64,000 nt of DNA from an uncultured Pseudomonadota bacterium. Lineage in GTDB: Bacteria; Pseudomonadota; Gammaproteobacteria; Burkholderiales; Eutrophovitaceae. Positions 6,289-63,190 of the stretch are shown piece after piece. The notes below the pieces were generated by a model. It had not been told where the DNA came from. It saw only the letters and a list, made by a program, of their open reading frames with translations, and made no database searches. The position numbers and the translations under genes are program-made. The stretch lies in contig CALJLA010000211.1 of NCBI GenBank assembly GCA_937983055.1, positions 12,414 to 76,413 of the forward strand, written 5' to 3'. How positions within the stretch are numbered: the stretch's first letter is position 1; every line of letters begins with the position of its first letter.

Positions 6289-6998
6289 CTCTCGTAAAGC
6301 TTCAGGTCGTTCTCGTTATCTACCTCAAACCAGCGGGCAGTAATTGGCACAGTGTCAATGCGCCTTCCGTCGGCGATCAACCGTTTCAATAGCGAGGTCA
6401 TGTCAAGCTTATCGCGTGTCTCGGGGCCAAGCAGGTCTAACAGGCCGGTGACCCAGCCCCAGGCTGCCGGCGAGAACTTAAGCAGCCCCATGTATTGGCC
6501 CTCGATCTCATGGAGACTGGTCACTCGGCTTCCAATCTCCGTCAAAGTGCCCCGACGGTCGACTCTCAGCGATTCGGCGTCGGACAGAGGGTCCGCAAAG
6601 CGCTCGCTCCACAAGTCTAGCCAGTTAACGTCATAGGTAATGGCAAGGTCACCGCGCACTGCAGCGAGTTTCGCCACAGTTTCTCCCGGATAAACGATAT
6701 CCGAATAACTTACGATACAGGCATCATTCGACAGCCATTCACTGGCACACACCAGCGACATGACCATGTTGGTTTCGGCCCAGCGCGGATTCTCGAATGT
6801 TGCCACGCCTGGATAGCTGATCTTCGCGGCCATGTAACCCCGTACCACACCGATCTCCGTAATACCGGCTTCGCGAAGAGCTTGGATTTGCCATTCGATG
6901 AGCGGCTTACCTGCCAAAATGGTCAAGCATTTGGGCGCATACTGCGTAAGCTGCCCCATGCGACTACCGCGTCCCGCAGCAAGAACAATTGCCTTCAT
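6255..6998 (-). CDS. LicC-like nucleotidyltransferase; candidate CTP:phosphoglutamine cytidylyltransferase (Cj1416-like)
   Basis: 247 aa with N-terminus MKAIVLAAGRGSRMG (nucleotidyltransferase P-loop). 4-nt overlap with the C26 hydrolase gene. The functional call comes from gene context. Confidence 0.6.
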   Translation of the reverse strand: MKAIVLAAGRGSRMGQLTQYAPKCLTILAGKPLIEWQIQALREAGITEIGVVRGYMAAKISYPGVATFENPRWAETNMVMSLVCASEWLSNDACIVSYSDIVYPGETVAKLAAVRGDLAITYDVNWLDLWSERFADPLSDAESLRVDRRGTLTEIGSRVTSLHEIEGQYMGLLKFSPAAWGWVTGLLDLLGPETRDKLDMTSLLKRLIADGRRIDTVPITARWFEVDNENDLKLYESWARERGGSLW

Positions 6999-11237: not shown

Positions 11238-12362
11238 CTAAGTCCCCGACCCGATCACGCGCCGCACCCGTCGCAACAGCCCTCGTTTCAGGCGCGCTAG
11301 CGGTATCAGCTCCGGATCGGGCGGAACTGTCGAAGGCGTCACCTGAGCAAAACAGTCTCGAATTCGAGATTCTATGCTGGCGAGGTACTCGGCCAGGCTG
11401 GCCTTGAGCTGGGCCAGTTCGTAGGCGGGCAGATTGGCCCGCGTAATGAGGTCAGAATTCAGGGCCATGGCGAAGTCGACGGTTTGGCGAAAAGCGTCTT
11501 CCATAAACGAACTGTTGCCGGCCCGTTCTAGTACTGCAGGATCCAGGGTGACTTGCTCGAAGAATCGCAAGCACGATATGTGTCGTTCAAGAGGAATCGC
11601 AACTTCTTGCATCGCAGGGGAAGGATAGCCGAGCCGAAAGAGTAGGCCGGAGCAAAGTCGTTCGATGCGAGCAACGACACTGGGATCGATTGTTCCCGCC
11701 TGCCATTCCATCGGTCTGCCGGAGCGGTTGATGAGCTGAGCGTCTTCCGGGTGGTCGGCTCGATAGGCACGCTCGGCGGCAGCGGCACGATCAAAGGTCG
11801 AGTTCCGCACGGCTCGATCGACGTCGGCCGTATCAAATTCAAGACCCATCGCATTCAGGACGTTACGGAGCGTCCGCCCGGCGTCCGCCTTGTAGTCTTC
11901 GAATCGCACCACGGTCACCCGCGGGTGAGAGAGCCATCCTTCGTTGAACAGTTTCCAGTTCAAAACCTTGTCTAGCAGAGTATTCACGTCCGGAAACGCT
12001 GCAAACTCGGAAAAACTCAGCTGCGACCCTTCTCGCTTGTAGCGAGAGTAGAGCGCATCGCGCGGGTCCCTTACGAAATAGATGATTTCCGAGCCCGCGT
12101 ATCTATCCGATCTCCACTCGTGCATCCACTGCACTTGAATATCGTCACGGAAATCGAAACTCTCATGGTCGCTCAAGGCGGGCAGCCATTTTCGGAGCAG
12201 GTTTTCATGGGGACTGAGCGACCAACGACCTCTCGCGCGACGCCACATTCCGTCGGGCGAGTAGCGGAAAGTCTTGATTCCCAGCTCAAGTAGGCAGTTG
12301 ATCAGCCATGTCGCCCCCGAGGGCTCTCTTGGCGAGGCGAGATATACCTTTCTGCTAGCCAT
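11238..12362 (-). CDS. sulfotransferase-fold protein with ~150-aa helical C-terminal extension
   Basis: 374 aa. LASPREPSGATWL resembles the 5'-phosphosulfate-binding loop (PKxGTTW). YFVRDPRDALYS resembles the 3'-phosphate-binding RDPRD motif. The C-terminal third is Ala/Leu-rich (AYELAQLKASLAEYLASIESRIRD). Confidence 0.6.
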   Translation of the reverse strand: MASRKVYLASPREPSGATWLINCLLELGIKTFRYSPDGMWRRARGRWSLSPHENLLRKWLPALSDHESFDFRDDIQVQWMHEWRSDRYAGSEIIYFVRDPRDALYSRYKREGSQLSFSEFAAFPDVNTLLDKVLNWKLFNEGWLSHPRVTVVRFEDYKADAGRTLRNVLNAMGLEFDTADVDRAVRNSTFDRAAAAERAYRADHPEDAQLINRSGRPMEWQAGTIDPSVVARIERLCSGLLFRLGYPSPAMQEVAIPLERHISCLRFFEQVTLDPAVLERAGNSSFMEDAFRQTVDFAMALNSDLITRANLPAYELAQLKASLAEYLASIESRIRDCFAQVTPSTVPPDPELIPLARLKRGLLRRVRRVIGSGT

Positions 12363-32363: not shown

Positions 32364-32390
32364 TTTTTTTCGCGCGAGCAAAACCTCGGT

Positions 32391-32467
32391 CGAACCACCC
32401 AGTCACCAGGAGAACCCCTCACCCGGTTTGCCCTGCCGTTTTGGCGTCTCGGTGTCTTGGTGGTTCG
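32391..32467. repeat. empty hairpin-family element
   Basis: The left arm cgaaccacccagtcaccaggaga pairs with the right arm tctcggtgtcttggtggttcg (9 perfect terminal bp, then imperfect pairing), with a ~33-nt loop. Confidence 0.6.
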
Positions 32468-32514
32468 CCCTATCTTTTCGCTTTAGAACGCACCCGGTGC
32501 GGACCCAAAGACAA

Positions 32515-32664
32515 GAACCAGAAGCGATACACGAAGGCACGAAGGGATCCAGATTTCCTTGTCTCGCCGCCAGATTATCGTCGGCGCCCTCTGCGTTGAG
32601 CGCCTTGCGCCGTCCAACGGCCGGCTTACCGAGCACTAAGCACTGAGCACCGAGCAACGAGCAC
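32515..32664. repeat. unpaired hairpin-family arms (gaaccagaagcgatacacgaaggcacgaaggg; tandem gagcac 7-9-mers)
   Basis: 32515..32546 carries a left-type terminal motif plus cgaaggcac repeats. 32631..32664 is gagcactaagcactgagcaccgagcaacgagcac. I saw no complementary partner nearby. Confidence 0.45.
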
Positions 32665-54782: not shown

Positions 54783-55369
54783 AAAAGCGAGGCGAACCAC
54801 CAAGGCACTAAGAAGGGTTCGAATCCTTGTCTACTCGACAAATCCTTGAGGGCGGCGATTGCCCGGGGAGTAAGTACTCGAATGCCTCAAGACGATGGTA
54901 GCGAGGCGATAGGCGTTCCTCTTGCGCATGCCCCGATCGGTGCAGACCTCGACTTCCTGGCAAAAAAAGGTCATCGATGCCGCGTTCAAGGTGCATCGGG
55001 TCCTCGGACCGGGCTTACTCGAGTCGGTCTACGAGGTGTGCTTATGCGAAGAACTGAGTATTCGGGGAATTTCCTTCACGCGGCAGCATCCGATTCCCAT
55101 TGTCTACGAGAGCGCCGTAATTGAGGCAGGACTGAGAATTGATCTCTTGATTCGCGATCAGTTGGTCGTTGAACTGAAGGCGGTCGAGCACCTCTTGCCA
55201 ATTCATGAAGCCCAGGTCCTCACCTATCTGAAGCTAGCCAAACTGCGGCTCGGACTGCTGATCAACTTCAACGTGCGGTCGTTCAAGCAAGGCATCCGAA
55301 GACTGATCTTATAGATGTTCAGAATTTTCTTGGTGTCCTTGGTGCCTTGGTGGTTCGATCAAAGCTTTT
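54783..55369 (+). mobile_element. hairpin-bounded cassette carrying a GxxExxY gene
   Basis: A perfect 16-nt inverted repeat, cgaaccaccaaggcac (54793..54808) and gtgccttggtggttcg (55342..55357), extended imperfectly outward to aaaagc (54783..54788) and gctttt (55364..55369). It encloses ORF 54922..55314. Mobility is inferred, not shown. Confidence 0.5.
54922..55314 (+). CDS. GxxExxY protein (PD-(D/E)XK nuclease-fold, PDDEXK_3-like)
   Basis: 130 aa with VIDAAFKVHRVLGPGLLESVYEVCL (the GxxExxY motif), DLLIRDQLVVELKAVEHLLPIHEAQVLTYLKL and LGLLINFN. Confidence 0.85.
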   Translation: MRMPRSVQTSTSWQKKVIDAAFKVHRVLGPGLLESVYEVCLCEELSIRGISFTRQHPIPIVYESAVIEAGLRIDLLIRDQLVVELKAVEHLLPIHEAQVLTYLKLAKLRLGLLINFNVRSFKQGIRRLIL

Positions 55370-56617: not shown

Positions 56618-56642
56618 GGTGCCTTCGTGCCTTCGTGTTGCG
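56618..56642. repeat. solo right-type hairpin-family arm
   Basis: ggtgccttcgtgccttcgtgttgcg. Its reverse complement matches the left-arm core at 54793..54808 in 13 of 16 positions. Confidence 0.5.
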
Positions 56643-57902: not shown

Positions 57903-58207
57903 GCTATCTCCTTAATGGTTAGCTCAAGCCGGTCGGGCGAAAAGTCCGCCCTCCCTGAGGAGCGCCGGGCTTGTCCCGCCCGGATCACCCCACCCTTTTT
58001 CTTAACCTCTCCCGGGAAAGAAGAAGTCGCGTCGATTGTGCCAAAGCGCAACAAAGCGAAGCAAGCATCAACCGTCTGAAAGAAGGCGTCTTCCGAATTG
58101 GGTGTTGCGAAATAGATACATCGCAGCGCACAATAACTCGGCTTATCCACAGCCGACGTAGTTTTCGCCTCGGTTTAGGAACTTACGCCCCTGACTTAAT
58201 CCGGGTT

Positions 58208-59044
58208 CTAACTTTTCGGGGCAACTTGTTTGCCGGGCACCGGAGGCACCTCCGAAACACCGAAAAGCCTGGCCAGCGCGGCACCCGGGTCATCCGCACG
58301 CATGAACGCTTCGCCCACGAGAAAGGCGTTGACGCCGGCCGCGCGCATGCGCGCCACATCGTCTGGCGCCAGAATCCCGCTCTCGGTCACCACCAGCTTG
58401 CCGTCGGGAATGTCCGCCAGCAGGTCGAGCGTGGTCTCGAGGCGGGTGTCGAAAGTACGCAGATTGCGGTTATTGATGCCGACAAGCGGCGTCTTCAGCC
58501 TGAGCGCGCGCGCAAGCTCCGCCGCGTCATGCGCTTCCACCAGCGTCGCCATCCCCAGCGCCGTCGCGGTCGCTTCCAGCTCGGCCATTTGCGCATCGGT
58601 CAGCGCCGCAACGATCAGCAGGATGCAGTCGGCCCCCATCGCCCGCGCCTCGAATACCTGGTAGGCATCGATCATGAAGTCCTTTCGCAGCACCGGCAGG
58701 CCACTCGCCTCGCGCGCGCGCGCCAGGTACGACGGATGGCCCTGAAAGAACTGCACGTCAGTCAGCACGGAAAGGCATGCCGCCCCGTGCTTCGCATACG
58801 ACGCCCCGATTGCAGCAGGGTCGAAGTGTTCGCGCAGGACGCCCTTGCTCGGACTCGCCTTCTTCACCTCTGCGATGACGGCCGGCAGCCCGGCGCCGAT
58901 CTTTTCCCGGAGCGCGCCGACGAAATCACGCGGCGCGGGCATGCGCTCCGCGTCTGCACGAATTGCCGTCAACGGGGCGGCTTTCGCCGCCACAGCAACT
59001 TCATCGCGCTTGACGGCGAGGATTCTGTCGAGGATGTCAGGCAT
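58208..59044 (-). CDS. trpC: indole-3-glycerol phosphate synthase
   Basis: 278 aa with [13 protein letters not shown] and [13 protein letters not shown]. Confidence 0.93.
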
Positions 59045-59099
59045 TCACGGGTTCGACGAGGGCAGACGGGGTTCGGGCGCAAACGCAGCTTCGCGAGGG

Positions 59100-60125
59100 T
59101 TACGCACTGAGCGCCCTGGTATAGGCGATGAACTCTTCCAGTTTCCTGGCGGCCGCGCCGCTGCGCAGGAGATCGCGCGCGATCCTGACCCCGCCGCCGT
59201 GGTCCTCCGCCAGACCCGCGACATAGATGGCCGCGCCGGCGTTCAACGCGACGATGTCGGATGCCGGGCCATCGCCTCCATTGAGCGCGGTCAGCAGCAT
59301 GTCCTTCGCCTGGCCGGCGTCGCTCACCTGAATGGCTTCCAGAGACGCCTCCCTGAGGCCAAACTTGCGGGGATGCACGCTGTACTCGCGGATCACGCCA
59401 TCGCGCAGCTCGCCGACCGCGGTCTCGCCGCCGATGGAAATCTCGTCGAGGCCTTCGGCCCCATGCACCACCATCACATGCCGGCTGCCCAGGCGCTGCA
59501 GCACGCGCACCTGGATGCCAACCAGGTCGGGATGGAACACGCCCATGACCTGGTTTCTGGCGCCAGCAGGGTTGGTCAGCGGGCCGAGAATGTTGAACAG
59601 CGTGCGCACCCCGAGCTCACGGCGCACCGGCGCCGCATGCTTCATCGCGGAATGATGGCTGGGCGCGAACATGAAGCCCACACCCACTTCGTCGATGCAC
59701 CGGGCGACCTGCGCCGGGGTCACGTTCAGGTTCGCACCCAGCGACTCGAGCACGTCGGCGCTGCCCGACTTGCTCGATACCGACCGGCCGCCATGCTTCG
59801 CGACCCGAGCGCCGGCGGCGGCGGCCACGAACGCCGCCGCAGTGGATATATTGAAGGTGTGCGCGCTGTCGCCGCCGGTGCCGCAGGTATCGAGCAGATG
59901 GGCATCGTCAGATACCGGCACCTTGGTCGAGAACTCGCGCATCACCTGGGCGGCGGCCGCAATTTCGCCGATGGTCTCTTTCTTGACCCGCAGGCCGACA
60001 ATCAGCGCCGCGATCAGCGTCGGAGACATCTCGCCGCTCATGATCTGCCGCATCAGGTCCAGCATCTCCTCGTGAAAAATCTCCCGATGCTCGATCACGC
60101 GAACCAGCGCTTCCTGGGGCGTCAT
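59100..60125 (-). CDS. trpD: anthranilate phosphoribosyltransferase
   Basis: 341 aa with [27 protein letters not shown]. Confidence 0.95.
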
Positions 60126-60694
60126 TACCGCTTCTCCTCCAGGAAATTCTTCAGCAGTTCATGGCCGTGTTCGGTAAGAATCGACTCCGGATGAAACTGC
60201 ACGCCCTCGATCGGCAGGCTCTTGTGGCGCACGCCCATGATTTCGCCGTCGTCGGTCCAGGCCGTTACTTCCAGACAGTCGGGCATCGACGAGCGCTCGA
60301 TCACCAGGGAGTGGTAGCGCGTGGCGATCAGCGGATCGGGCAACGCCCTGAACACGCCTTTACCCTCATGCCTGACAGGCGAGGTCTTGCCGTGCATCAG
60401 CGTCGCGGCATGCACGATGCGCCCGCCAAAGGCCTGGCCGATGCTCTGGTGGCCGAGGCACACGCCGAGAATCGGGACCCGCCCGGCAAACGCCTTGATC
60501 AGCGGCACCGACACCCCGGCCTCGTTCGGCGTGCAGGGCCCGGGCGACACCACGATGCGCTCCGGCGTCAGTCGCTCGACCTGCTCCAGCGAGATCTCGT
60601 CGTTCCGGTACACCCGCACCTCCTCGCCCAGTTCTCCGAAGTACTGGACAAGGTTGTAAGTGAACGAGTCGTAGTTGTCGATCATCAGGAGCAT
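60125..60694 (-). CDS. trpG: anthranilate synthase component II (glutamine amidotransferase)
   Basis: 189 aa with [26 protein letters not shown] and GVQFHPES. Confidence 0.93.
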
Positions 60695-60710
60695 TTTCTC
60701 GGTCCTAGGA

Positions 60711-60877
60711 TTTGACCACGGAGGACACGGAGGGAAATCGAAACAAAACGGCGAACCACCAAGGCACCAGGTGATCTGATCTGAGGAATCTTTATTCTTT
60801 GGTGCTCTTGGTGAACTTGGTGTCCGTGGTGGTTCGCCTTCGCCCTTGGTTGTCCTCCGCGTCCTCCGTGGTTCAAA
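60711..60877. repeat. empty ~167-nt hairpin-family element between trpE and trpG
   Basis: The outer stem is tttgaccacggaggacacggagg with cctccgcgtcctccgtggttcaaa. The inner stem is ggcgaaccaccaaggcaccagg (60750..60771) with cttggtgtccgtggtggttcgcc (60816..60838). There is no ORF inside. Confidence 0.75.
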
Positions 60878-60884
60878 CTCGCCC

Positions 60885-62360
60885 TTAGTTGATCCTGGCG
60901 TTCAAGCCAGCCTGCGCCATCTCGGCTGCGCGCAACAGCGCGCGGGCCTTGTTCTGGGTCTCGATCCATTCGTTCTTGGGCACAGAGTCGGCGACAATGC
61001 CGGCACCCGCCTGAACGTACAGCATGCCATCCTTGATCACGGCGGTGCGAATCGCGATGGCCAGATCCATGTCCCCGCCGAACCCGAGGTAACCGACGGC
61101 CCCGGCATAGATGCCGCGCTTGGACGGCTCCAGCTCTTCGATGATCTCCATCGCGCGAATCTTCGGTGCGCCGGACACCGTGCCGGCCGGAAACGTCGCC
61201 TTGAGCACCGCCATCGCGTCCAGCCCCGGCTTCAGCCGCCCTTCAACGTTGGAGACGATGTGCATCACGTGCGAGTAGCGTTCGATCACCATGCTGTCGG
61301 ACACCTTGACCGAACCGATGTCCGCCACCCGGCCGACATCGTTGCGGCCGAGGTCCATCAGCATGACGTGCTCGGCGCGCTCCTTGGGGTCGGCCAGCAG
61401 ATCCTGCTCCAGCGCGAGATCCTCCTCGCGCGTCCCGCCGCGCGGCCGGCTGCCGGCAATCGGCCCCAGCGTGACCACACCGCTTTCCAAGCGAACCAGG
61501 ATCTCCGGCGATGCGCCGACCACATGAAAGCCGCCCATGTCGAAATAGAACATGTAGGGCGAGGGATTCAGCGCGCGCAGTGCGCGGTACAGGGACAGGG
61601 GCGAAGCGCTGAAGGGCGCGCTCATCCGCTGGGACAGCACCACCTGCATGATGTCGCCGTCGTAGATGTAGCGCTTGGCCCGATCCACCGCCGCCATGAA
61701 GTCCGCTTCGGCAAACTCCGACCGCGCAACGGCCGCGACAGACGGCGCCTCGGGCGGCACCACCACCGGCTGCCTGAGCATCCAGAGCAGCTCTTCCAGC
61801 CGCTTCTGGGCGCGGGCCCAGGTTCCTTCTTCGCCCGGGTCCGCGTAGACCACCAGAAACAGTTTGCCCGACAGGTTATCGAGCACCACCAGCTGGTCGG
61901 ACAGCAGCAGCAGGATATCGGGCGTGTGCAGCACATCCGGCTTGTCGACTGCGGCAACGCGCCTCTCGATGTACTTGACCGTTTCGTAACCGAAGCAGCC
62001 GACCAGCCCCCCGAGAAACCTCGGCAGCCCTGGGCGCGGCGCCGCGCGAAGCCGCGCATGCTGGGCGGCGATCCAGTCGAGTGGATTGTCCTGTTCGCTG
62101 TCGGACACTACGGTGTCGCCGCGCAGTTCGCGGCAACGCCTGCCCCGCACCTCAAACCTTGTGTGCGCCGGCAGCCCGATGAAGGAATAGCGTCCGAAGC
62201 GCTCCCCACCCTGCACCGACTCCAGAAGATAGGAGTAAGGCTTGTTGGCAAGCTTCAGATAGACGGACAGCGGGGTGTCGAGATCGGCAAAGGTTTCCAG
62301 AACGACCGGAACCCGGTTGAAACCCTGCGCGGCAAGCTGCTTGAACTCCTGCTCAGTCAT
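60885..62360 (-). CDS. trpE: anthranilate synthase component I
   Basis: 491 aa with [18 protein letters not shown] and the C-terminal [20 protein letters not shown]. Confidence 0.95.
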
Positions 62361-62492
62361 GACGAACTCCGGAAACGCTGAAAAACGAGAGGGCTTTGCG
62401 TGTCAGACGCGACGCCAGCAGGCGCTCTGGCGCCACCAGCGCCAGCCGGCCCACTGCGCAAACCTCAGGCTCTCATGCGTGTGGAGTTTCAT
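62361..62492 (-). promoter_or_regulatory. trp leader: 29-codon Trp-rich leader peptide (62403..62492) plus structured region and U-run
   Basis: The minus-strand ORF ATG AAA CTC ... encodes MKLHTHESLRFAQWAGWRWWRQSACWRRV* (5 Trp). The segments CUGGCGC, GCGCCAG and CUGGCGU can pair in mutually exclusive ways. A UUUUU run lies at 62381..62385, 20 nt before the trpE ATG. Confidence 0.65.
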
Positions 62493-63190
62493 GACCGGAA
62501 GGGTCTTGTCAGATCGAGCACTTCGGAAACGGTCGCTACTATAGCATCGCAGTCGAGATCCGTTAGCGCCATGCCGCCGCGATATCCATAGGGCACGCAG
62601 AAGACCGGGCAGCCGGCCGCCCGGGCCGCGGCGATATCGGTTTGCGAGTCGCCCACCATCAGCAGCCGCTCAGCGGACACCCCGAAGCTTTGCGCGCAGT
62701 GAAGCAATGGCAAGGCATCCGGCTTCTTGCGAGGCAGCGTATCGCCCGCGACGACGAGGTCGAGCCTCGCGCGCAGGCCGACCGCCTCGAGCAGGGGCAG
62801 GGTAAAGGCCTCCGGTTTGTTCGTAACGCAGGCGAGCTTCTGACCCCGGGCCCGCAGCGCATCCAGCGCCGGCACGACGCCCGGAAACGGCCTGGACGCC
62901 CTCACCAGGACCTCCCGGTAGTGCTCGCGGAACCTGGAGCGCGCCTGCTCGAACACGTCGGTATCGGGCTCTCCGGTCATCGTGCCGGTCAGCATTCGCT
63001 TCACCAGCCGGTCGACGCCCTCGCCGACATACGAACGCACCTTCTCCACGCCGATCGGCGAACGGCCAAGGTCCTTGAGGGTGCGATTGGCCGCCTCGTG
63101 CAGATCCGGCAGCGTCTCGACCAGGGTGCCGTCGAGATCGAAGGCCACCGCGGCGATCTCGATTGGAAAGGCGACGCTCGACTTAACCAC
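62489..63190 (-). CDS. gph: phosphoglycolate phosphatase (HAD family)
   Basis: Contains AVAFDLDGTLVETLPDL plus HAD motifs. The start is uncertain: GTG 63190 lies in the hairpin arm, and a downstream GTG just before AFDLDGT is possible. The listed ATG 63274 lies inside the hairpin element. Confidence 0.85.
   Translation of the reverse strand: MVKSSVAFPIEIAAVAFDLDGTLVETLPDLHEAANRTLKDLGRSPIGVEKVRSYVGEGVDRLVKRMLTGTMTGEPDTDVFEQARSRFREHYREVLVRASRPFPGVVPALDALRARGQKLACVTNKPEAFTLPLLEAVGLRARLDLVVAGDTLPRKKPDALPLLHCAQSFGVSAERLLMVGDSQTDIAAARAAGCPVFCVPYGYRGGMALTDLDCDAIVATVSEVLDLTRPFRS

Follow-up and report, generated by a model that had tools for sequence, protein, structure and literature searches.

Is the long hairpin that fills the spacer between trpE and trpG in an uncultured Burkholderiales bacterium a control device of the trp operon, or does it have another origin? 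The question was addressed in a 64,000-nt stretch of DNA (contig CALJLA010000211.1 of assembly GCA_937983055.1, positions 12,414 to 76,413 of the forward strand), referred to below as the window, in which a first-pass annotation had described a two-tier hairpin of 167 nt and had read it as likely to influence the ratio of TrpE to TrpGDC. The hairpin is probably a gene-less composite copy of a dispersed family of palindromic cassettes, named here after the GxxExxY gene that full-length members carry, and not a purpose-built trp control element. The striking structure at this junction has an ordinary cause, namely a repeat element in an operon spacer.

The spacer (60695..60884, 190 nt) separates trpE (anthranilate synthase component I; 60885..62360, minus strand, TIGR00564, E = 9e-167) from trpG (glutamine amidotransferase component II; 60125..60694, minus strand, TIGR00566, E = 2e-84). 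Both belong to a co-directional cluster with trpD (59100..60125), the start of which overlaps the trpG stop by 1 nt, and trpC (58208..59044), which were assigned on the same strand with NCBIfam models. Sequence reading and folding place the element at 60711..60877, with 7 nt to the trpE stop on one side and 16 nt to the trpG ATG on the other. On the mRNA, which corresponds to the minus strand, the trpE stop UAA and the heptanucleotide GGGCGAG are followed by the outer 5' arm UUUGAACCACGGAGGACGCGGAGG (60854..60877), consisting of two tandem 9-mers each with a GGAGGA resembling a Shine-Dalgarno (SD) sequence, by the purine-rich linker ACAACCAAGGGCGAA (60839..60853), and by the inner 5' arm GGCGAACCACCACGGACACCAAG (60816..60838), which is of the CACCAAGG arm type. 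An AT-rich apical loop with short sub-stems (60772..60815) leads to the inner 3' arm CCUGGUGCCUUGGUGGUUCGCC (60750..60771), the U-rich linker GUUUUGUUUCGAUUUC (60734..60749), which together with the inner stem is terminator-like, and the outer 3' arm CCUCCGUGUCCUCCGUGGUCAAA with two CCUCC motifs (60711..60733); UCCU-AGGA-CCGAGAAA and the trpG AUG complete the spacer. In this series AGGA (60703..60706, minus strand) is the candidate SD of trpG, 8 nt 5' of the ATG and 4 nt 3' of the element.

The outer stem (60711-60733 with 60854-60877; arms written as ACCACGGAGGACRCGGAGG / CCTCCGYGTCCTCCGTGGT) has 19 perfect pairs, or about 23 when extended, with one bulge and a single mismatch that is A.C on the plus strand and G.U on the mRNA strand. 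The inner stem (60750-60771 with 60816-60838; arms written as GGCGAACCACCAAGGCACC / ..GGTGGTTCGCC) has 12 perfect pairs (GGCGAACCACCA / UGGUGGUUCGCC), beyond which about 8 pairs are added that are broken by a bulge and a mismatch. The coordinates, stems, mismatch, bulge and AT-rich loop given by the first-pass annotation all agreed with the sequence, and the distances to the trpE stop and the trpG ATG were confirmed by direct reading. That annotation had also dismissed a 94-aa open reading frame (ORF) running through the hairpin on the minus strand (60685..60969); it has no NCBIfam or Pfam family match and overlaps the 3' end of trpE in another frame, and on these grounds it is an artefact.

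Folding with RNAfold bore out the stability expected for this structure within the cluster. The mRNA strand folds at -87.2 kcal/mol, compared with -55.3 +/- 3.8 for dinucleotide shuffles (z = -8.38, with 0/200 shuffles as stable), and the plus strand at -95.3 kcal/mol (z = -7.74). When 350 nt of mRNA are folded as context, unpaired probabilities of 0.02-0.14 are obtained for the outer and inner arms, the value for the outer 3' arm being 0.02. The element had been said to leave only the agga SD for trpG; the motif is present (60706..60703 in the direction of the mRNA), but in the same context its unpaired probability is 0.11, mostly through a weak local stem with trpG codons 2-3, so that an SD left free is not a robust prediction and trpG initiation is possibly less free than it appears.

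A metagenome contig from a separate assembly (L001) has exactly this spacer sequence, and the hairpin is therefore not an assembly artefact. Exact-sequence look-ups found no record for the GxxExxY protein or the TrpE of the window, and TrpG led to one short contig, which was L001. A search of the whole window against Rfam gave no match at the gathering threshold and no rRNA match, and a permissive Rfam search returned generic miRNA-hairpin models only (E >= 0.4).

The cassette family in the window and in related genomes

The GxxExxY hairpin-cassette repeat family is a grouping defined in the present analysis. Its arms consist of 8-9-nt units that are repeated in tandem and follow the pattern C(A/G)C-NN-AGG(A), with arm ends ..CC(A/G)C / G(T/C)GG.., and the unit types include CACGGAGGA, CACCAAGG, CACGAAGG and CGCAGAGGA. 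The full-length member in the window is a 570-nt cassette (54791..55360, plus strand) with CACCAAGG-type arms (GGCGAACCACCAAGGCACTAAG / CTTGGTGCCTTGGTGGTTCG), which lies between valS and a major facilitator superfamily (MFS) transporter gene in the same direction as both and encloses a GxxExxY gene (54922..55314, plus strand; TIGR04256, E = 1e-43; PF13366 (PDDEXK_3), E = 7e-43). About 140 nt of this cassette (54815-54960) separate its 5' arm from the portion of the ORF that is conserved. On either strand, 5'-arm units contain an SD-like GGAGG(A), or AAGG/GAGG in other dialects, and 3'-arm units contain CCUCC, the core of the 16S rRNA anti-SD.

The trp element carries at least two tandem C(A/G)C-NN-A(A/G)G units, has its purine-rich arm on the 5' side, and ends in the family termini. 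The first-pass observation that the inner stem repeats the core of the cassette arms was upheld, the inner arm being common to the trp element and the cassette 54791-55360 at 18/18 positions (GGCGAACCACCAAGGCAC). The inner-arm core GGCGAACCACC was found at 7 window sites with at most one mismatch, compared with 1.9 expected, and 0/100 shuffles reached 7; its recurrences include 32389/32459, 54791 and 60750/60838. The core of the inner 5' arm is likewise present in the arms of the cassette (54791, 55338) and in a gene-less hairpin of 81 nt at 32389..32469 (GGTCGAACCACC...GGTGGTTCGCC), so that the inner-arm type is present in three copies. The CACGGAGGA units that make up the trp element's outer arms represent another dialect of the same arm grammar, which indicates that the trp element is one hairpin type in the loop of another. 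No gene-carrying partner of the outer-arm type was found in the 64-kb window.

The apical loop was considered as a remnant of the 3' end of the cassette ORF; with the 3' end of that ORF and the stretch downstream of it only the 7-mer CTGATCT and TTCTT were in common, which is too weak a similarity to support such a claim. Two solitary CACGAAGG-type half-arms with no recognisable partner were also seen in the window, one at 32530-32548 (plus strand) and one at 56619-56637 (a minus-strand arm, GTGCCTTCGTGCCTTCGTG on the plus strand), the latter just ahead of a terminator-like, GC-rich hairpin that separates the convergent MFS transporter and porin-like genes. Both half-arms are probably what is left of elements in a third dialect that have decayed.

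A genome collection was scanned with TrpE, which yielded 80 loci, all from metagenome-assembled genomes of uncultured Burkholderiales or Betaproteobacteria (numbered here with the prefix L), the best match being 88% identical. The window and these loci (1.13 Mb) were subjected to a seed-and-extend inverted-repeat search in which elements were merged, and neighbouring genes were called with a crude caller based on G+C content at third codon positions (GC3), which recovers known genes. The census gave 71 elements, all 71 of which were intergenic, most of them 150-250 nt long and mostly 0-40 nt from both neighbouring genes; closeness to both gene ends is thus common to the trp element and to this multi-copy, strictly intergenic family. 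In the 25 loci with any element, elements occupied 47/201 co-directional junctions (23%), 14/57 convergent junctions (25%) and 5/61 divergent junctions (8%; chi-square p = 0.027), so that co-directional junctions hold 47 of the 66 elements assigned to junctions. Like repetitive extragenic palindromic (REP) sequences, elements of the family are placed in 3' and intercistronic stretches that are transcribed, and promoter regions are avoided.

Using tblastn, 13 GxxExxY ORFs were found in these sequences, all of them (13/13) co-oriented with the upstream gene and 12/13 co-oriented with the downstream gene call; in the exception (L004) the downstream call overlaps the GxxExxY match by 1 nt and looks like an artefact of the gene caller. 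The GxxExxY ORFs of L004, L009, L013, L017, L062 and the window belong to TIGR04256 / PF13366. One of the 13, at 12214-12384 of L007, is a truncated GxxExxY remnant within a 307-nt hairpin, which shows that gene-less hairpins arise when cassettes with a gene decay. Arm dialects are specific to the individual genome and are common to its gene-carrying and gene-less copies, and A-rich and U-rich sub-terminal segments are a symmetric feature of the family.

Target-site duplications were sought at the ends of the 71 elements. Identical flanks occurred 8 times at k = 2 (5.2 expected), once at k = 3 (1.4 expected) and never at k = 5. No insertion sequence with family arms was seen in the DNA examined, in which the GxxExxY PD-(D/E)XK ORF was the sole cargo, no screen for Y1_Tnp having been made. 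A metagenome-wide search with the pattern CGGAGGN{5,35}GGCGAACCACC as a signature of the two-tier arrangement proved too loose and was abandoned; it matched at least 120 stretches, and the matches listed were essentially all due to chance in coding DNA, the partner arm being absent from every one of them.

The trpE-trpG junction in related genomes

Comparison of the trpE-trpG spacer across the 80 loci, which the first-pass annotation had proposed, gave a divided result. All of the closest relatives have spacers of 170-305 nt, each with a family hairpin, whereas in many of the loci, sister lineages among them, the spacer is 1-16 nt long (for example TAG-ggagctcacc-ATG). The long spacers all form long hairpins (-64 to -112 kcal/mol), the arms of which repeat units of the CACGGAGGA, CGCGGAGGA, CGCAGAGGA, CACGAAGG or CACCAAGG type in tandem, and in the relatives the element stops 12-16 nt before trpG. 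Orthologues of the hairpin were found at the trp junction of more than 12 genomes. On a neighbour-joining tree of TrpE the hairpin is present throughout two clades, in which the window is included, and is sporadic elsewhere, L020 standing beside the empty L029 and L032 beside the empty L038, with further cases in L062 and L065; the sporadic presence outside the two clades indicates several independent gains or transfers. Among the more distant relatives, L062 has a 419-nt spacer with a GxxExxY ORF that is intact and reads in the direction of trp (E = 8e-46) and L032 has a 409-nt spacer with a frameshifted GxxExxY ORF. The GxxExxY frame of L062 (within 11480-11898) opens inside the 5' arm, with no ATG, GTG or TTG before the conserved N-terminal region.

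The CRCGGAGGA outer-arm type is common to elements of L002, L007, L008, L009, L012, L020, L023 and L027, and the two-tier arrangement itself, in which a CRCGGAGG hairpin encloses one of the CACCAAGG type, recurs at the trp junctions of L002, L005 and L007. In L007 a second two-tier copy lies 3.5 kb away and has the linkers as well as the arms in common with the first. In L002 a second two-tier copy occupies the trpG-trpD spacer and matches the trpE-trpG copy perfectly, in inverted orientation, over 54 nt that cover outer arm, linker and inner arm; the trpG of this genome is therefore flanked by two element copies with a common perfect 54-nt stretch. The U-rich linker of the trp element recurs in L002 and L005. 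The trpG-trpD junction is hairpin-filled in L002 (12226-12537), L008 (12262-12471) and L013 (4164-4413), whereas in the window it is the 1-nt overlap mentioned above. A short module, ..GATGGCTTCGCCAACGCCGTGTCG.., was observed inside the loops of several elements (L002 12343-12370; L002 16399-16774, twice; L007 at about 6600-6700) and is tandemly duplicated in one genome; it may be a further small repeat lodged in element loops.

Spacers of 0.6-7 kb, with unrelated inserts and ORFs of their own, separate trpE and trpG in more distant relatives (L017, L019, L028, L039, L040, L046, L051-L053, L055, L059, L061, L071, L076 and L081); the insert of L039 has two small ORFs that are toxin-antitoxin-like by eye. 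The 0.6-1.2 kb spacers of L017, L028, L039, L055 and L061 contain other ORFs and almost no family arms, and they are therefore uninformative on the hairpin. The trpE-trpG junction in this order seems to be generally tolerant of insertions.

The extent to which arms and interiors have been maintained was assessed against synonymous divergence. Between the window and L002, identity at four-fold degenerate sites of trpE is 0.55, which is saturated, while the outer 3' arm and linker are identical at 25/28 positions (about 89%) and the loops are not alignable. Among 11 orthologous trp elements, 6 have CAC/GTG and 5 have CGC/GCG, the difference being compensated in both arms and at both unit positions. 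Some force keeps the arm motif and its pairing, and this could be a function of the element itself, gene conversion among copies, or host selection.

Probable origin of the hairpin and its possible consequences for the message

On the explanation judged probable, the trp hairpin is a CACCAAGG-type hairpin, of the arm type of the window cassette, embedded in the loop of a CRCGGAGG-type hairpin; the composite, which in relatives is a repeated unit in its own right, was acquired at the trpE-trpG junction by an ancestor of the present Burkholderiales lineage and has been inherited since, with its arms kept intact and its loops not. Full-length members of the family have one small gene of the GxxExxY type (PD-(D/E)XK nuclease superfamily), co-directional with both flanking host genes, within such a hairpin, and the obvious candidate for the mover of the family is this nuclease, which would act on the arms. 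The sequences show the anatomy of the element, its family membership and multiple copies, its distribution and inheritance, and the upkeep of its arms; the effects on the message are inferred.

Several considerations weigh against this explanation. The mobility of the family is read from its distribution, and neither a target-site duplication, nor a recognised transposase, nor an insertion polymorphism within a population accompanies it. The nested insertion that would have produced the two tiers is suggested by the arm types. The outer-arm type occurs once only in the 64-kb window, so that in this genome multiple copies are seen of the inner type alone, and the census depends on the crude GC3-based gene calls. 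Maintenance of the arms past synonymous saturation could reflect host selection for the hairpin and would then favour a functional view. Finally, cleavage, stabilisation and neutrality are indistinguishable from sequence alone.

A role of the palindrome in DNA, with the mRNA hairpin incidental, is an unlikely alternative. The palindrome would be bound or cut by the GxxExxY nuclease or by a host protein, or would act as a cruciform or recombination site, for which the binding of gyrase or integration host factor (IHF) by REP and bacterial interspersed mosaic element (BIME) sites offers a model. The two strands are indeed symmetric in folding: when both strands were folded for 40 gene-less elements that lie between co-directional genes, sense was the more stable in 19 and antisense in 20 (Wilcoxon p = 0.62), and for the window element the antisense strand (-89.9) was more stable than the sense strand (-80.9). 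Interiors have also been inverted between the arms, since L008 (11477-11689) and L009 (6033-6246) have orthologous trp elements with interiors that are reverse complements of each other (score 62, compared with 12 in direct orientation and a shuffle maximum of 13), the L012 interior being oriented as in L009; this would fit a flip of the interior by recombination between the inverted arms, or a re-insertion the other way round. Conservation of the arm motif across phyla alongside a gene of a nuclease family, and the genome-specific dialects that gene-carrying copies have in common with gene-less ones, also fit a DNA-level activity. However, binding and cleavage are no more than candidate activities, the GxxExxY protein has no solved homologue (no sequence-level match in the PDB), and such an activity is compatible with a cassette-family origin, as it concerns the spread and upkeep of the family and not the effect on trp expression. 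A constant 5'-CCAC..AGG ... CCT..GTGG-3' polarity relative to trp was considered as a sign of selection at the RNA level and was withdrawn, because the polarity of a palindrome is the same on both strands, only the interior sets an orientation, and interiors flip.

Selection by the host of a cis-regulatory hairpin, which would set the TrpE:TrpGDC ratio as a processing site, as a barrier to decay at the 3' end of trpE, or through lost translational coupling, is the reading implied by the first-pass annotation and is unlikely. It would explain why the hairpin is retained at the junction throughout two clades in spite of saturated synonymous sites, why the arms stay paired by compensated changes, and why the element ends 16 nt before the ATG (12-16 nt in relatives), a distance that an SD can occupy. 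A hairpin of this kind, however, stands at about one quarter of the co-directional and convergent junctions in relatives, including the trpG-trpD junctions of L002, L008 and L013, and sister lineages manage with trpE-trpG spacers of 1-16 nt. Nor would inversion of the interior between two relatives, or a sense strand with no folding advantage and, in the window, a less stable fold than the antisense strand, be expected of such a device. The arm motif is moreover conserved across phyla in unrelated operons, which points to the biology of the element itself rather than to trp.

Partial intrinsic termination, in which the inner GC-rich stem and GUUUUGUUU would release some polymerases before the outer 3' arm and leave trpGDC expressed below trpE, was deemed quite unlikely. 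A consensus scan does flag a minus-strand site (60761..60749, tail TTTTGTTTCG), the stem base GGUUCGCC lies immediately 5' of the U-rich tract, and this tract is also found in L002 and L005. On the other side, the loop is large, and terminator-like sites in the region (7) show no excess over shuffles (3.5 +/- 2.2). No promoter-like site was found downstream for trpGDC, although these genes are needed for tryptophan synthesis, and a search of 58000-63000 for a promoter made by the element revealed no sigma-70-like site. The A-rich and U-rich segments are symmetric within the family palindrome, and 47/66 elements have co-directional genes on both sides, a setting in which strong termination would carry a cost.

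A chance palindrome, an assembly artefact, a small coding region or a Trp leader-peptide attenuator is scarcely credible, for although UGGUGG, which might be read as tandem Trp codons, stands just 5' of a terminator-like tail and the ORF 60685..60969 spans the region, none of the 200 shuffles folds as well, the sequence is identical in an independent assembly and has orthologues in more than 12 genomes, the ORF is without a family match, and attenuation was ruled out by the lack of an AUG on the mRNA strand of the spacer and by the identity of GGTGG with the arm terminus of the family.

For a resident copy of the cassette family, consequences at the RNA level would still be plausible. Being transcribed with trpEGDC, the element would place two stacked helices of about 20 bp each in the message. 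Stacked helices of this length are a classical substrate of RNase III. By analogy with the intervening sequences (IVS) of 23S rRNA and with Correia elements, RNase III cleavage in the stems would be the likeliest fate, and it would split trpE from the trpGDC message, trpG then being translated from its own AGGA; an uncleaved stable 3' hairpin would form a barrier to 3'-exonucleases and slow the decay of trpE. In the known cases rRNA intervening sequences, which have complementary stems at their borders and may contain a small ORF, are cut out by RNase III (PMC4990558), and Correia hairpins in the mRNAs of Neisseria are cleaved or bound by it (PMC2649163, PMC10969869). Processing, decay-barrier and polarity effects are plausible as side-effects of such an mRNA hairpin, and would be by-products that the host tolerates.

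Known repeat systems, other phyla and significance

In function the element is similar to the Correia and REP/ERIC hairpins of operon spacers and to the IVS of rRNA. Among known systems, the Correia elements of Neisseria (CREE/NEMIS) are similar in being inverted-repeat elements of about 100-160 bp that are present in many copies, mostly intergenic, and co-transcribed with their neighbours, and their inverted repeats form an mRNA hairpin that is cleaved or bound by RNase III, with altered transcript levels (PMC2649163, PMC10969869). They differ in having a TA target duplication, IHF sites and promoter-forming ends, whereas no duplication or promoter-like site was found here, and the arms of the present family are tandem 8-9-mers and its full-length relatives carry a PD-(D/E)XK gene within the hairpin. 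REP sequences and REPINs are extragenic palindromes that form hairpins in single-stranded DNA or mRNA and are abundant, over-represented and grouped in a genome-specific manner; the palindromes of the present family are likewise extragenic, hairpin-forming, over-represented and grouped by genome. In operon spacers such as malE-malF, REPs reportedly stabilise upstream mRNA, a finding attributed to Newbury et al. in 1987. The arms of the present family are 20-40 nt of tandem units, compared with REPs of about 20-35 nt. In the REP/RAYT system the repeats that form the gene-less copies also stand on both sides of a single protein gene (PMC3116915). RAYT is a Y1 transposase flanked by REPs, whereas the gene here is a multi-copy GxxExxY PD-(D/E)XK gene inside the hairpin.

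The IVS of 23S rRNA are selfish inserts with complementary borders that produce a long stem in a host transcript and may contain a small co-directional ORF (PMC4990558). They are located in rRNA helices 9, 25 or 45 and their known ORFs encode four-helix-bundle S23p proteins, not GxxExxY proteins, while the present element lies between trpE and trpG. [quoted passage not shown] Elements within operons and elements inserted into one another have precedents, since the MITE Chunjie of Geobacter uraniireducens sits within an operon without breaking it and the BOX, RUP and SPRITE elements of pneumococci are nested (PMC10969869). Genes annotated as TIGR04256 / PF13366 in RefSeq (Sphingomonas, Bacteroides, Bernardetia) have similar arms and a co-oriented position between genes; unlike these, the trp element itself is without an ORF.

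The wider occurrence of the cassettes was surveyed by comparing the window GxxExxY protein with PLSDB plasmids and chromids using tblastn, which gave 7 records from 5 phyla. In Sphingomonas parapaucimobilis the GxxExxY gene, which has the arms TTCACGCGAAGGCGCGAGGACGCGA / TCGCGTCTTCGCGGCTTCGCGTGAA, separates fabD from fabG in the fab operon; in Bacteroides finegoldii it lies between radA and the next gene, with arms TTCACCACAGAGGACGCAGAGGACACGGAG and complement; and in Bernardetia it is flanked by arms of the CACAGAGA type. A perfect 21-bp CGCAGAGGA gene-less mini-hairpin adjoins the GxxExxY gene of Gemmatirosa, the Treponema locus has only a weak 16-nt arm pair, and the Prevotella locus, which was also examined for arms, has none. 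In all 5 annotated cases the gene is co-oriented with both neighbours, and the RefSeq annotation names the protein only, the arms, hairpin and gene-less derivatives being unannotated. The coding sequence annotated in the S. parapaucimobilis cassette (L202; NZ_CP155749, 482837-483265, with 25-nt arms) reads on through the 3' arm, and the ends of RefSeq proteins of the GxxExxY family may accordingly be inflated by arm sequence. In the same cassette the last arm unit (GAGGA) lies 8 nt before the GxxExxY ATG (L202 1459-1476). No description of the cassettes or their arms was found in the literature searched, coverage of which was incomplete, so that the term undescribed is provisional.

Taken together, these features might tentatively be attributed to a pan-bacterial class of mobile elements, GxxExxY hairpin cassettes, a joint proposal that may well not hold in all its parts. 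Members of this class, which appears undescribed, would have SD-like 5' arrays (GGAGG/AAGG) and anti-SD-like 3' arrays (CCUCC/CCUU), would carry a GxxExxY PD-(D/E)XK cargo, and would insert precisely and in the sense direction between cistrons with no target duplication. They might live on read-through transcription by the host and be rendered harmless by RNase III excision, as an mRNA counterpart of the rRNA IVS, and their gene-less derivatives would saturate junctions and stay palindromic past synonymous saturation.

For the trp operon the result is deflationary, as the hairpin is a resident repeat and gives no evidence of new tryptophan control. For annotation it carries a warning, because such hairpins yield spurious ORFs (60685..60969 in the window), inflate intergenic distances and can mislead operon prediction. 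The gene annotated as a GxxExxY protein is the cargo of a palindromic cassette with an arm grammar conserved from Burkholderiales to Bacteroides, which poses the question of what moves an element with neither transposase nor target duplication. Gene-less derivatives occupy up to one quarter of junctions in some uncultured Burkholderiales, and the essential biosynthetic operon junctions at which the family is found include trpE-trpG and trpG-trpD, with fabD-fabG as a further occupied junction. The family offers a system in which the tolerance of bacteria for 40-60 bp of RNA duplex between cistrons can be studied, with RNase III processing, differential decay and lost translational coupling as the possible effects to be examined.

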